From Octopus vulgaris (taxonomy: Eukaryota): a stretch of DNA of 64,000 bases. The notes beneath the pieces are model-generated. The model made no database searches. It was not told where the DNA came from and saw nothing but the letters and a program-made list of their open reading frames with translations. The position numbers and the translations under genes are program-made. The stretch spans positions 93,124,001-93,188,000 of the forward strand of contig OX597814.1 in the NCBI GenBank assembly GCA_951406725.2. Reading direction: 5' to 3'. Shown piece after piece: positions 13,599-37,661 of the stretch (within the stretch, counting starts at the first letter, position 1; every line of letters starts with the position of its first letter).

Positions 13599-15109
13599 CT
13601 TTTTAAATATATATATATATATATTCCTTTTTAAAATATATATATATATATTCCTTTTTAAACAAGGACAACGTTTCACAGTAAAACACAACTTCACATG
13701 CGCATCAGAAAACCTAGTATATGTCTTAACTTGCTCGGGCTGTAATGAACACTACATAGGCCAAACTAAAAATAGCCTCCGCCAACGCATGACTGTCCAC
13801 AGATCCCACATAAAAATACAGGAATACAGAAAAATAGCACTTAGTGCACATATTGATACCTGTGCCGCACAACTTCATCCCAATTTTAGAATCTTTCCCC
13901 TCTACAAATTTAAAGACAATGCCACTCATACCCAGCGAATAACCATGGAATCCCACCTTATTAATAAATACAGACCACTTCTAAACACATCCCCCTAACA
14001 CGAACCCACAACAAACACACTTACACCTGCACACACCCTACACACACTTTTACCCAGATATTAACACCATGACACACGCAAATATATGGTTCCACACATA
14101 CACATAATTTGATACGGGTGCAAAACATCCAACACTATTTTTTGGAAATGACTGTAAATATTGACTTCACACAAACACGTTGCTTCCCGATATAGGCACA
14201 AGGCCAGCAGAACTATAAATATTGAAAAAAAATAATTTCCAAAAAATAGTGTTGGATGTTTTGCACCCGTATCAAATTATGTGTATGTGTGGAACCATAT
14301 ATTTGCGTGTGTCATGGTGTTAATATCTGGGTAAAAGTGTGTGTAGGGTGTGTGCAGGTGTAAGTGTGTTTGTTGTGGGTTCGTGTTAGGGGGATGTGTT
14401 TAGAAGTGGTCTGTATTTATTAATAAGGTGGGATTCCACACACACACACGCGCGCACACATACATACATATAGCTCTTCCTGTCCTAAACGAACTTACTT
14501 ATCCAGCTCAAATTCAGTCAAGCGGAAAATACACTCCTTAACTACGCGCTAAAAAGCTATTTAAAATATCCACATGACGTCTACTGACCAGCCTGAACAA
14601 TAAGAATTTTCAACAACGCTATTTTCGAAAACTCCATACACCACCCACATCAACATTCATTCTAAACATTCACGTGACCTCTCTATTATGACCACATGCA
14701 CGTGACCTCTTTATTATGACCAATAAGAAATTTTAGGCGCGACACTAGCCAAATTTTAACATCTCTGGAGCCTATTTTCTTACCCCAACACCAACTTCCA
14801 TTCAAACATTCACGTGACCCCTTTATAATGACCAATTAAAATTGTATTGACCATTGTCCACAAGAAATTTTAGGCGCGAAACCAAGCAAATCTTAAACAA
14901 CTCTGGAGCTTCTTTTTTCACATATAAGAGACAGCAAACCCAACATAAAGTCAGATAAGAGAAAAAAATGTATCAGAAAGGAACTCTATCTCTCTTAAAA
15001 ATATATCTTTTGATAAGCATAACAAATGCGCAACCGGTAAAAAGAACGTTCACCTAATTAAATACACTCTCCCTTACTTAAATTATTTTGTCAGCATTTT
15101 CAGCATTTC

Positions 15110-22792: not shown

Positions 22793-23355
22793 GGATCTTT
22801 ACCTTTTGACCGGCATATTTAGAAAATAATTTTTTGTAACTAAACACTTTTTTGCCACCTGCCCCTACTCCTCAAATTTCTTCATTTTTCCTTTTTTCCG
22901 TGACTCTAACCCTAAAACCCCAACCCTAACCCTAACCCTAAGACCTTAACCCTAACCCTAACCCTAACTCTAAAACCCTAACCCTAACCCTAACCCTAAC
23001 CCTAAAACCCTAACCCTAAAACCCTACCCTAAAACCCTAACCCTAAAACCTTAAAGCTAAAACCAGTACAAACGCACGAACGATGTCATAAATAACAGTG
23101 ACAAACGAAATATACACCGCCGGAAGTTCTTGTTGACAAACAACAGCAGTAATTTTATTCAGCTGAATACACGTCATTGATTGGTTGAAATTACCGAAAT
23201 AAGACAACTTCAACACGAAATAACTTCGTAAATATGAACTTTTCTCAAAAACGCTAAGAGTAAAAGATGTTTTATATGACACATTCTAACAGAGTTCGGA
23301 GTTTGAAAGTGTTTAGTTACATAAAATTATTTTCTAAATCTGCCGGTAAAAATCC
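22793..23355. mobile_element. Merlin-type MITE containing about 150 bp of (CCCTAA)n-like telomeric repeats
   Basis: TIRs GGAT...ACCGGCATATTTAGAAAATAAT / ATTATTTTCTAAATCTGCCGGTAAAAATCC; perfect 8-bp TSD CAATTGTT; CCCTAA/CCCTAAAA array at 22905-23055. Confidence 0.85.
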
Positions 23356-25168: not shown

Positions 25169-28103
25169 AAAAAGGGGATGTGGAACACGAGTTGTGATAT
25201 ATAAAAAAGGAAATGAAGAAAATGCTGACAAAATAATTTAAGTAATTTAATTAGGTAAAAGTTCTTTTTACCGGTTGCGCATTTGTTATACTTCTCAAAA
25301 GATATTTTTTTAAGAGAGATTAGAGTTCCTTTCTGATAGATTTTTTCCCCTTATCTGACTTTATGTTGGGTTTGCTGTCTCTTATATGTGAAAAAAGAGG
25401 CTCCAGATTTGTTTAGGATTTGCTTGGTTTCGCGCCTAAAATTTCTTGTGGACAATGGTCAATACAATTTTGATTGGTCACGTGAATGTTTAGAATTTTC
25501 GAAAATAGCGTTGTTGAAAATTCTTATTGTTCAGGCTGGTCAGTAGACGTCATGTGGATATTTTAAATAGCTTTTTAGCGCGTAGTTAGGGAGTGTATTT
25601 TCCGCTTGACTGAATTTGAGCTGGATAAGTAAGTTCGTTTAGGATAGGAAGAGCTATATGTATGTATGTGTGCGCGCGTGTGTGTGTGTGTGTGTGTTTA
25701 TATGTATGTTGGTGCGCGCGCGCGTGTATATATGTGTGCGTGTGTGGGTACAATTTTCAATATTTATAGTTCTGCTGGCCTTGTGCCTGTATCGGGAAGC
25801 AACGTGTTTGTGTGAAGTCAATATTTACAGTCATTTCCAAAAAATAGTGTTGGATGTTTTGCACCCGTATCAAATTATGTGTATGTGTGGAACCATATAT
25901 TTGCGTGTGTTATGGTGTTAATATCTGGGTAAAAGTGTGTGTAGGGTGTGTGCAGGTGTAAGTGTGTTTGTTGTGGGTTCGTGTTAGGGGGATGTATTTA
26001 GAAGTGGTCTGTATTTATTAATAAGGTGGGATTCCATGGTTATTCGCTGGGTATGAGTGGCATTGTCTTTAAATTTGTAGAGGGGAAAGATTCTAAAATT
26101 GGGATGAAGTTGTGCGGCACAGGTATCAATATGTGCACTAAGTGCTATTTTTCTGTATTCCTGTATTTTTATTTGGGATCTGTGGACAGTCATGCGTTGG
26201 TGGAGGCTATTTTTAGTTTGGCCTATGTAGTGTTAATTACAGCCCGAGCAAGTTAATACAGGAATGTTCTGGAGGATGGTGTCAAAAGCTTCATTGTTGA
26301 GGGGGTTGTGTGTAGAGATGTATGGTAGAGTATGGGGTTTCGATGTAACTGGTTTAGGGCGTCTAAGTTCCTGTGTGCTGAGTTTTAGGGCGCGTTGGAT
26401 CCCATTGTCAATTAGTGACGTGGGGTAATCCCTGCTTGTTAATGTGTCCTTGAGTTCTTGTAGACGTAAGAGAGGGGTGTTTTTATTGGAGACTAAAACT
26501 AAGCACACAGGAACTTAGACGCCCTAAACCTGTTACATCGAAACCCCATACTCTACCATACATCTCTACACACAACCCCCTCAACAATGAAGCTTTGGAC
26601 ACCATCCTCCAGAACATTCCTGTATTAAAAAAGGACCATAGAATGAACCAAATCTTCCTAACACACGAAATCATAAAGAGCAAAAGGCAACCCAAATCAT
26701 TGAAAACTATCCTAACAAATGCCAAAGTACTGCCAACCACAACAACTAAACCCACAGTAAACAAATGCAATAGACCCAACTGTGGTATATGCATCAACCT
26801 AATAGAAGGTCCGGAATTCCTTTTTAAACAAGGACAACGTTTCACAGTAAAACACAACTTCACATGCGCATCAGAAAACCTAGTATATGTCTTAACTTGC
26901 TCGGGTTGTAATTAACACTACATAGGCCAAACTAAAAATAGCCTCCGCCAACGCATGACTGTCCACAGATCCCAAATAAAAATACAGGAATACAGAAAAA
27001 TAGCACTTAGTGCACATATTGATACCTGCGCCGCACAACTTCATCCCAATTTTAGAATCTTTCCCCTCTACAAATTTAAAGACAATGCCACTCATACCCA
27101 GCGAATAACCATGGAATCCCACCTTATTAATAAATACAGACCACTTCTAAACACATCCCCCTAACACGAACCCACAACAAACACACTTACACCTGCACAC
27201 ACACTACACACACTTTTACCCAGATATTAACACCATGACACACGCAAATATATGGTTCCACACATACACATAATTTGATACGGGTGCAAAACATCCAACA
27301 CTATTTTTTGGAAATGACTGTAAATATTGACTTCACACAAACACGTTGCTTCCCGATATAGGCACAAGGCCAGCAGAACTATAAATATTGAAAATTGTAC
27401 CCAGATACGTACACATATATACACGCGCGAGCGCACCAACATACATATAAACACACACACACACACACGCGCGCACACATACATACATATAGCTCTTCCT
27501 GTCCTAAACGAACTTACTTATCCAGCTCAAATTCAGTCAAGCGGAAAATACACTCCCTAACTACGCGCTAAAAAGCTATTTAAAATATCCACATGACGTC
27601 TACTGACCAGCCTGAACAATAAGAATTTTCAACAACGCTATTTTCGAAAATTCTAAACATTCACGTGACCTCTCTATTATGACCACATCCACGTGACCTC
27701 TTTATTATGACCAATAAGAAATTTTAGGCGCGACACTAGCCAAATTTTAACATCTCTGGAGCCTATTTTCTTACCCCAACACCAACTTCCATTCAAACAT
27801 TCACGTGACCCCTTCATAATGACCAATCAAAATTGTATTGACCATTGTCCACAAGAAATTTTAGGCGCGAAACCAAGCAAATCCTAAACAAATCTGGAGC
27901 CTCTTTTTTCACATATAAGAGACAGCAAACCCAACATAAAGTCAGATAAGAGGAAAAAATCTATCAGAAAGGAACTCTAATCTCTCTTAAAAAAATATCT
28001 TTTGATAAGCATAACAAATGCGCAACCGGTAAAAAGAACTTTTACCTAATTAAATTACTGAAATTACTTAAATTATTTTGTCAGCATTTTCTTCATTTCC
28101 TTT
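25166..28103. mobile_element. PLE locus 2: head-to-head inverted dimer (minus arm 25166-26481, plus arm 26493-28103) encoding RT thumb, Cys linker and GIY-YIG
   Basis: RDYPTSLIDNGIQRA...CNRPNCGICINL...FTCASENLVYVLTCSGCN*HYIGQT...PLLN. Arms are near-identical reverse complements. Flanked by (TA)n. Cys-rich linker suggests a Neptune-like clade (inference). Confidence 0.92.
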
Positions 28104-33581: not shown

Positions 33582-33597
33582 GCTTTACATGATATTC

Positions 33598-34004
33598 TCT
33601 TTACTCTTTTACTTGTTTCAGTCATGTGACTGTGGCCATGCTGGAGCACCGCATTTAGTCGAGCAAATCGACCCCAGAACTTATTCTTTGTAAGCCTAGT
33701 ACTTATTCTATCGGTCTCTTTTGCCGAACCGCTAGGTTACGGGGACGTAAACACACCAGTATCGGTTGTCAAGCGATGTTGGGGGACAAACACAGACACA
33801 CAAACATATACACACACATACATATATACAAAATATTACGACGGGCTTCTTTCAGTTTCCGTCTACCAAATCCACTTACAAGGCTTTGGTCGGCCCGAAG
33901 CTATAGTGGAAGACACTTTCCCAAGGTGCCGCGCAGTGGGACTGAACCCGGAACCATGAGGTTGGTAAGCAAGCTACTTACCACACAGCCACTCCTACGC
34001 CTAT
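33598..34004 (-). mobile_element. SINE family B
   Basis: Full reverse-complement copy. Confidence 0.9.
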
Positions 34005-34249
34005 ATATTTGGAAAATCCTCTGTGCTCTTGGCTACTCTTTGCAAGTGCAGCGTTTGAAACCCACTGTACTACGTTTTCTTTTTATATATTTTGGGTGTT
34101 ACCAAAAAATTGTATGAACAGGACCAGAACGTTAAATAGCAGCCCTTCCTTCGAGTAAAAATACAGCTATCTTTGCCATGTCAAGAGAAGTGCAAGTAAA
34201 CTGATATGAGAAATATGCAATGCTGCAGGGAAACCATTCACTATAGCTA

Positions 34250-34282: not shown

Positions 34283-35050
34283 ACATCGCCGCCACCACCA
34301 CCACCACCAAGACCACTACTACTGCTACTAGTACTACTTAAATTGTTAACACCACCACCACCACCACCACTACTACTACCACTACTACTACTACTACCAC
34401 CCGTACTACCGCTACTACTACTACAACTTAATTTGTTTCCACCACTACCACCACCCCATCTACTACTACTACTACTACTACTTTTACCCCTCCTCCTCCT
34501 CCTCCTCCTCCTCCTACTACTACTACTACTACTACTACGACGACGATGACGACTACTACTACTACTATTACTTAAATTGTTACTGCCAACACCACCACTA
34601 ATAAAAATAACACTACTTAAATTGTTACTACTAATATCACCACCAGCACCACCACTACTACTACAACTACTACTACTGCTGCTACTCCTGCTGCTGCTAC
34701 TCCTGTTGCTGCTGCTGCTGCCGCTGCAGCTGTTGCTACTACTGCTGTTTCTGTGAATGTAGGCTAGTCTCGAACAAACAATGACAGCATAATTATCTAG
34801 TCGGCTGGACTTCTGGGTTTCTTCTGATCATGTTCTTTCAGATATCTTACACACGAAGTTTATAAGAGTTACATAAGAGTTACATAAGAGTTGCTTACTT
34901 CAATTTGTTTCAGTTGATGAAAAAGAATCTGACTGTGATGACGAAACTTCTCTGGTGCTAGTGCTTACGACAAACACTCGTAGCAAGCTCAATTACAGAA
35001 ACTAGCATGAGAAAAAGTATTCTAATCTTTGATTGAGGTAGATTTGCTAT
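34250..35050 (+). repeat. Diverged paralogue of 22190-23530, lacking about 22610-23360
   Basis: Shared AGCATAATTATCTAGTCGGCTGGACTTCTGGGTT and AGTTGATGAAAAAGAAT...CTCGTAGCAAGCTCAATTACAG blocks after CAC/TAC microsatellites. Confidence 0.9.
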
Positions 35051-35063
35051 ACATGTATGTATG

Positions 35064-35122
<59 letters not shown>

Positions 35123-35181
35123 AGGTCCCGGGTTGAGTCGAGGTTAACCACAGTAAATAAGGTACTCAATACATTGCAGAG

Positions 35182-35220
<39 letters not shown>

Positions 35221-35229
35221 TTATAGAAG

Positions 35230-35282
35230 GAGCTTCTACAGGACTAGAACTGTTTCATTCAGATGAAATCTTCAGGAAGCTC
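35230..35282 (-). ncRNA. Type I hammerhead ribozyme motif (inverted partner at 35297-35350 +)
   Basis: Reverse complement GAGCTTC-[CTGAAGA]-tTTCAtcTGAAt-[GAAA]-CAG ttctagtc CTG-[TA]-GAAGCTC: perfect 7-bp stem I, canonical core, GUA site; weak stem II. Confidence 0.7.
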
Positions 35283-35377
35283 AGATGAAAGCTTCAGGAG
35301 TTTCCTGAAGATTTCATCTGAATGAAACAGTTCTAGTCCTGTAAAAGCTCTTTCTATAAAATAAATATATATATATA

Positions 35378-35943
35378 TTGGGTTGTCCGGAAAGTTCGTG
35401 CCGATTTATAATAGCTTACCTTTCGATGTATTTTAGAACATGGTTGAGTCCATAAAATAGGATTTGACTACACCTCCATTTAGAGCACAGTTTAAGCTAT
35501 CTTTTCGTGGAAGAATGTTTATGTTCCTATAATCTGTGTTAATTCTGTAACCCTTTAAAATGGAAGATGAGAAAACTCATTTTCGGCACTTGATGCTTTG
35601 GGAACCAGACAAAAATTGCTGCAGCTCGGCTGGGATGTGTTACCCCACACTCCATATTCACTAGATATGGCTCCTTCGGATTTCCACTTATTCAGGTCTC
35701 TGTAGAATATACTTAATGGTAGAAATTTCAATTCCTTGGATAACGTAAAAAGATACCTTGATGAATTCTTTGCCATGAAACCACCTCAATTCTGGGAAGA
35801 GTGTATTTTCAAGTTAAAGGAAAGATGGAGACGCATTGTGGAACAAAATGGTTCATATTTGGTTGATTAAAAATGCAATGGGAAGTATTTATTGACCCTT
35901 TTCTTTCCTTTAAAAATCGGTACGAACTTTCCGGACAACCCAG
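35378..35943 (+). mobile_element. Internally deleted mariner element
   Basis: TIRs TTGGGTTGTCCGGAAAGTTCGTGCCGATTT / AAATCGGTACGAACTTTCCGGACAACCCAG with TA flanks; LGWDVLPHTPYSLDMAPSDFHLFRSL. Confidence 0.93.
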
Positions 35944-35956
35944 TATATGCATATAT

Positions 35957-36459: not shown

Positions 36460-36579
36460 TGTATGTATGTATGTATGTATATGTATGTATGTATGTATGC
36501 ATGTATGTATCAGCCAGATCTCGCTCAAATAAAAAAATAACCTGTTTGAAAAAAAAAGACAAACGAATAAACAGATACA

Positions 36580-37062
<483 letters not shown>

Positions 37063-37661
37063 ATATACAGAGAGGAGTGGTGTGGGGGACGAGATAATGT
37101 GATGTGTGATGTGTGTGTGTGCATGTGCGTGCACGCACGCGAATAGATGTGGCTAAATGACTGAAAGCGTCCAGTGAAATTGCCGGAATGAGTGGAATAT
37201 CTAACGTTCCAGACAGAATCCTTCTCCGGGATAAAAAAGAGACAAGAGGGAAATAAAAAGGAGTACCGGTTTATAACCGTTATGTTTGAGAAACTGATTG
37301 CCTTTGGTATTGGTCACGCAAATGGCTACCACACCCAAATAACCTTTCTCGGACAATCGAATATACTCACTCTATTGACAAATATACGAGTGTATATTCT
37401 TTCTGACTTATGAATTCTTAGACGGCTATGTGACTGCGACACGCGTTTGTGTGTCTGTGAGTGTGTATGTCCTTGGTATGACTTTTTAAACTGCATCCCG
37501 TTGTGCGGCCTCGGTTCCAGGGTTTTGAGGAATGTGGGATCACTTCTTAGAACATTCTATCGATATAAACTTTGGCCGTTGATTTTCGTGCAAATTTTCA
37601 GAAAGAAATTGTTTCAATATTCACAAAATGCCAATAACTTTTGATTAATTATTTTATTATT

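Follow-up and report, generated by a model that had tools for sequence, protein, structure and literature searches.

Among described systems, the Penelope-like elements (PLEs) of the Hydra clade come closest to the locus considered here. In the parts of Craig et al. 2021 (PMC8557442) drawn on in this work, PLEs are described as leaving inverted, truncated copies with a tail at one end and as using (TA)n targets, and the motif set listed there for the Hydra clade matches that of the parent element identified below: Hydra-1_Obim and its clade share with the parent a C-terminal GIY-YIG, RW(K/R) and DKT motifs, a CxCx5C linker, and CxxC plus CxH. Moreover, according to the same parts of that paper, both the clade and the present family are devoid of CCHH, carry a hammerhead within the repeat and use (TA)n targets, and the legend of its Fig. 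2 gives the inverted, 5'-truncated copy with a tail at one end that is also found here. It is nevertheless important to stress that Hydra-1_Obim is a different family, whose published hammerhead and protein differ when compared by eye, and that the tail measures about 70 nt here versus 30–40 in the Hydra-clade PLEs of those passages. Unlike the products described in them, the commonest one sampled here is a double-hammerhead palindrome of 200–240 bp with a fixed 5' point.

Other systems share some of these features. For the anole PLE PAc (Poseidon), both strands are primed in vitro from two start sites flanking the tail, mostly on RNA that has not been cleaved (Frangieh et al. 2024, PMC11167929). 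The tail flanked by start points where the ORF begins, the AT-rich target, the extension of both strands and the mainly uncleaved template would be common to PAc and the present family; however, PAc belongs to another clade, and the main text of that study contains no start-site, cap or palindrome analysis. In Schistosoma, the passages of Cervera and De la Pena 2014 (PMC4209133) considered here report dual, opposite-strand hammerheads 100–700 bp apart, which are read as truncated PLEs without a mechanism being offered in those passages; these minimal hammerheads have in common with ours an extra base before stem II and a palindromic loop III, whereas in our case about 8 nt separate the cores, stem II is short and stem III longer. 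As far as the excerpted text of Schostak et al. 2008 (PMC2377424) goes, transcripts of Penelope in D. virilis start inside the upstream pLTR, supplied by a tandem copy, as would those of the present family. The D. virilis promoter is internal and TATA-less, and an intron precedes the hammerhead; here, in contrast, the TATA-like box is located upstream, and the stubs have lost it. Finally, non-LTR retrozymes, in the portion of the preprint used (bioRxiv 10.64898/2026.07.22.740005), share a type I hammerhead, a non-coding nature and a PLE derivation, but consist of tandem units, while the palindrome studied here is head to head and its parent is coding.

How inverted, one-tailed insertions form and what the hammerhead does are both open in the PLE literature consulted. 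A start-site or cap argument for a PLE was not found in that literature, which consisted chiefly of open-access articles.

Structure of the palindrome and its hammerhead motifs

The locus lies in a window of 64,000 nucleotides of Octopus vulgaris DNA (contig OX597814.1), to which all coordinates refer, whereas positions within the element take the opening base of stem I as +1. Two inverted arms, 35216–35282 and 35298–35364, are complementary at 64 of 67 positions, as expected from the near-perfect hairpin recognized in an initial annotation, which had also seen in it a stand-alone unit inside a (TA)n tract. These last two points did not stand: comparison with family sequences places the element at 35121–35366, with a tail on one side only, and since family sequence continues leftwards to 35121, the (TA)16 at 35185–35216 is internal to the element.

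Read from the left, a (TA)n/(TG)n microsatellite (35048–35120), representing the target side at the tail end, is followed by the PLE tail (35121–35184, minus strand), which corresponds to leader positions of about +75 to +137 and the end of which would be the far start point of reverse transcription. The (TA)16 comes next, substituting about 7 nt of leader at the point where short arms end (L044 versus L033), and possibly reflects a nick that the endonuclease of the element itself made later. The long arm (35217–35281, minus strand) runs from +1 at 35281 to about +65 and holds an intact type I hammerhead at 35231–35281, with its predicted cut at 35237/35236; the non-parental G that precedes its +1 (35282, minus strand) is likely a copied cap. 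A 15-nt junction filler (35283–35297) is a copy of the neighbouring arm, 18 of 19 nucleotides being identical between 35259–35277 and 35281–35299, and the partial third core that had been noticed at the centre is indeed present as this 19-nt copy of 35259–35277. The G at 35298 (plus strand), which precedes +1 of the plus arm, is ambiguous, as it may be either a cap copy or filler overlap. The short arm (35299–35366, plus strand) spans +1 to about +68, with a predicted cut at 35343/35344, and the (TA)n target resumes at 35367–35378.

As stated previously, no RT sequence adjoins the palindrome, its neighbour from 35379 onwards being an unrelated element that we take to be mariner-like. This non-autonomous element (35379–35944), inserted into the TA run to the right of the palindrome, has 33-nt terminal inverted repeats and a broken C-terminal piece of transposase. 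Another interspersed repeat flanks the region as two inverted copies (33592–34024 and 36559–37066; 83–94% complementary), and a telomere-like interstitial (CTAACC)n tract occupies 22906–23064.

The minus arm conforms to the type I hammerhead, with CUGAAGA, a 3-bp stem II behind a U-U, GAAA, a stem III carrying an 8-nt loop and a GUA site, so that the features defining this type (CUGANGA, GAAA, an NUH site and stems I–III) are all present. It is the sole match of the hammerhead descriptor in the window, and strict descriptor matches occurred in none of 200 locally shuffled windows. As a motif fit, the predicted type I fold of this arm is accordingly confirmed by the descriptor, including the weak stem II closed by U-U; the 7-bp stem I assigned to it also holds, except that the seventh pair is not parental, being formed with the junction G, and the parent stem has 6 bp. 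The plus arm, described earlier as the same motif with a stem I mismatch, proved to be just that: it differs by three transitions (35301, 35344 and 35351), one of which breaks the first stem I pair, beside the cleavage site. The covariance-model check suggested at that stage gave another outcome, as the Rfam hammerhead model had no match at E ≤ 10 in the region or in a single arm, and the scan returned only miRNA-type hairpin matches, all below the gathering score.

For the isolated arm, a structure other than the hammerhead is predicted to be the most stable (−12.7 kcal/mol versus −9.6 for the hammerhead), and the whole hairpin is predicted at −122 kcal/mol versus −10.4 for the hammerhead fold alone. 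Since the antisense arm is transcribed first on both strands and a 67-bp hairpin can form, ribozyme folding should be blocked; on these predictions, the cleavage of transcripts from either strand that had been envisaged for the palindrome is unlikely.

The parent element and the family of copies

Walking upstream from the hammerhead led, at several loci, to an RT piece and an endonuclease piece about 1.1 kb apart, and from there to the parent. Three loci (L165, L166 and L167) run from a hammerhead through the tail, the ORF (RT-GIY-YIG) and a low-complexity 3' part to a second hammerhead; the hammerhead is contained in direct repeats (pLTRs) around the RT-GIY-YIG region, and the tail reads into the ORF. 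Insertion of the element is into (TA)n. Motifs of an RT followed by a C-terminal GIY-YIG occur in natural ORF pieces of L165–L167 and L172, RWR and DKT in L165, L166 and L167, and the CxCx5C linker with CxxC and CxH around E and N, without CCHH, in L167, L168 and L172. A Pfam search with four parent ORF pieces returned nothing relevant, and the Hydra-clade assignment is founded on these motifs together with a match, judged by eye, between the parent RT and the published Hydra alignment. The coding region measures about 2.3 kb and the ORF is broken in 12 of 12 long loci examined; the two loci that retain a repeat on either side are 4.7 and 5.5 kb long and include a 3' part of low complexity. 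The PLE origin proposed in the initial annotation is thereby supported, because a parent with the same hammerhead around RT-GIY-YIG exists in the genome, and the search for it that had been recommended ended at L165–L167.

Six natural subfamily copies vary at none of 38 core and stem positions versus 5 of 13 free positions (p = 5e-4), and no compensatory pairs were found among them. Judged by this substitution pattern, the hammerhead motif is under selection in the parent, and the family copies do keep the core nucleotides, a matter on which the ribozyme interpretation had been made to depend.

Two other candidates for the parent were discarded. A 779-aa RT-GIY-YIG ORF between opposed hammerheads in L061 is a different PLE nested in a TA tract, as 20 of 20 other copies of it do not have the palindrome's hammerhead, and a decayed PLE beside L063 is unrelated to the palindrome family. 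The former represents a second young PLE family (L061 2700–5793, L071, L073, L076 and L080), all 40 scored copies of which are 98–100% identical; it carries a minimal hammerhead-like motif with a U3-A8 core variant and a CCGG loop, immediately behind a splice-acceptor-like AG, and older relatives of it lie in the window at 26144–26957 and 13651–13791.

An exact 27-mer that covers stem III together with the cut site gave at least 5,971 arms in the 2.8-Gb genome, and perfect AGCT-centred palindromes number at least 645, which answers the earlier call for a genome-wide copy search with a large family. The palindrome is therefore one of well over a thousand stubby PLE insertions, and in 17 of 17 other palindromes listed one arm extends about 70 nt further. 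A position-ordered sample of 100 matches, corresponding to 70 loci on one contig (C1), left 64 loci for analysis once four long inverted pairs and two singles had been omitted; the youngest subfamily (about 1,200 arms, chiefly in long inverted pairs) is absent from it, so the compact share is lower genome-wide. In this youngest-looking subfamily (L264–L283), a change in loop III lengthens the loop palindrome to 6 nt, and its long inverted pairs contain no RT sequence (four tested with endonuclease or RT queries, plus L272).

Two opposed arms are present in 48 of the 64 loci, and 43 of these are compact by manual reading and 35 by script, the eight loci added by hand having been set by the script at −5/−6 through a chance reference match. 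Arm 3' ends fall into two groups, one at +66 to +76 (53 of 112 arms) and the other at +135 to +137 (54). At the 5' side, arms begin most often at +1, where stem I opens (27 of 112); a further 36 starts are spread over +2 to +12, and 21 lie at −10 or beyond. Exactly one tail was found in 37 of 39 two-armed loci and two tails in none; these 37 loci, like the window, have the layout of an inverted insertion, that is, a 5'-truncated inverted copy with the tail at one end. Both arms bear the same subfamily marks in 26 of 27 loci spanning several subfamilies, which points to compact palindromes having arisen repeatedly and independently, and the junction centres vary from copy to copy. In some cases (L032, L042, L221 and L227), each arm carries sequence absent from the other, so that neither can have been copied from its partner, and such arms fit two separately primed cDNAs.

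Head-to-head joints and the origin of the palindromes

Reverse transcriptase can copy an mRNA cap as one extra C, so that a single non-parental G is expected at joints where a cDNA has run to the end of a capped RNA. In parents, the base before +1 is C, T or A. At free joints, where there is no overlap with the other arm, a non-parental G was found in 23 of 27 (p = 8e-11), part of these joints having been chosen by likeness to the window and some being the two arms of one locus; the position-ordered sample contributes only five such joints, all with G. For instance, in L237 an (AT)19 is joined directly to G+1, and in L259 ORF sequence is. Genome-wide, G precedes +1 in 971 arms, 493 with a single G and 478 with GG, the latter being ambiguous. 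The corresponding control with T is uninformative, since the parental subfamily dominates it (98 of the first 100 matches read AT, and 19 of 20 checked loci are parental). TATA boxes generally lie near −30, and of 48 parent-type arms, selected on a neighbouring motif, 40 have a TATA-like box beginning at −29; this box varies at 1 of 7 positions versus 14 of 22 in the spacer among the six subfamily copies. Taken together, the sequences make it likely that the head-to-head joints record the RNA start of the element, at the first base of the predicted hammerhead. A depth step at +1 in eight contig sets, also seen in the two largest, has no bearing on expression or start.

We thus favour, with a probability of roughly 0.7, the palindrome being a head-to-head, maximally truncated Hydra-clade PLE insertion that likely combines two run-off cDNAs of a capped leader RNA. 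In such a scheme, transcription from the pLTR promoter would begin at the A of stem I and yield a capped RNA, and the PLE protein would nick both (TA)n strands, priming one cDNA at the tail end (+137) and the other at about +68. Synthesis of both cDNAs on the 5' leader copy would end by run-off at the cap, 137 or 68 nt from where it began, with one C added, whereupon the two ends, each with a self-complementary AGCT, would anneal or be joined by repair with short templated filler. The product would have neither promoter nor ORF, and its hairpin would block both ribozymes, whereas longer or full copies would stem from priming at the downstream pLTR of a read-through RNA. The whole hammerhead is present in most genomic arms and breaks at the cut site show no clear peak (102 at +45/46 versus 78 at +41/42), which suggests that templates were mostly uncut; run-off at the cut site was accordingly dropped as a source of the arms.

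The extra G is, however, also exactly the base that would be added if stem I of a cDNA from the same PLE folded back, was trimmed to +1 and was extended by one or a few templated bases, a route for which no start site is needed. The CAGG-AGCTTC class, with three matching bases, and 35 arms in which at least four bases before +1 match stem I are in keeping with it. Yet these 35 long extensions contrast with the 493 single-G joints and may instead begin at the cleavage site, and the conserved box at −29 is left unaccounted for, which renders fold-back rather unlikely in our view; pure snap-back of one cDNA as the sole route is rejected, as each arm can hold sequence that the other lacks. A boundary at +1 could alternatively be a splice acceptor, with arms derived from spliced RNA whose upstream exon ended in GAG. 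The AG at +1/+2 follows a T-rich run and is kept in six of six subfamily copies, and in D. virilis, according to the part of the literature considered (PMC4209133), the intron has been mapped as ending where helix I has its 5' end. Nonetheless, the sequence before the G is not a common exon but mostly other-arm filler, (TA)n or ORF sequence, and a search of eight contig sets, a weak test, yielded no such spliced joint, so that splicing appears very improbable.

The compact palindrome might, on the other hand, be a mobile non-autonomous unit, retrozyme- or MITE-like, that spread from a few masters with ribozymes on both strands, much as the initial annotation had suggested when it spoke of a self-contained non-autonomous or retrozyme-like unit. 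One perfect centre is common to the 645 palindromes and most arms have an intact hammerhead motif, which speaks for such a unit. Conversely, the other centres are highly varied, the perfect centre itself is found with differing subfamily marks while the two arms of a locus agree in subfamily, the palindrome contains no promoter, and its predicted hairpin far outweighs the ribozyme fold. Moreover, a MITE would have the symmetric terminal inverted repeats of a DNA transposon, whereas the ends here are asymmetric (+68 versus +137) and the parent is a retroelement. Tandem units each with a hammerhead, as in non-LTR retrozymes, occur neither at the locus, where a repeat search of the window detected no tandem array, nor in the sampled copies, which are head to head or single. 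With variable centres and arms matched by subfamily, the self-contained unit is unsupported, and we regard it as improbable.

The inverted architecture is already known for PLEs, and what is new is a testable account of its origin by two run-off cDNAs. Devoid of the TATA-like box and the ORF, the stub is likely inert, and the single locus in the window is in itself such an inert copy; as a family, by contrast, stubs make precise predictions, namely an RNA start at +1, a promoter box at −29, priming points +68 and +137 and a ribozyme cut at +45, and have placed over a thousand potential RNA hairpins of 60–70 bp across the genome. More tentatively, the mRNA of the element may begin with the ribozyme, so that cleavage at +45 would remove the cap and thereby switch between two forms, one capped and translated, the other processed. 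The genome would then amount to a natural 5' RACE of this RNA on a thousand-fold scale, and twin priming at two start sites might explain the inverted, one-tailed layout of all endonuclease-bearing PLEs.

A few minor observations concern the leader around the cut site. The palindromic loop III would allow one molecule to pair with another. Small changes cluster at +42 to +51, and only in one of the two arms (15 partner arms out of 48, versus 1 of 48 at +32 to +41), this stretch being variable in 19 of 100 arms (L202–L233 and others), and the plus arm of the window is likewise changed at +46; either an RT crossing the cut or structured site or quasi-palindrome slippage may be involved. Indels near the cut site do not differ significantly between compact arms (3 of 61) and parent-type arms (1 of 84; p = 0.31). 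Finally, a few arms start exactly at +46, the base after the cut (L294, L295, L303, L304, L313 and L318), and possibly are copies of the cleaved 3' product; one of them is joined to endonuclease-coding sequence.
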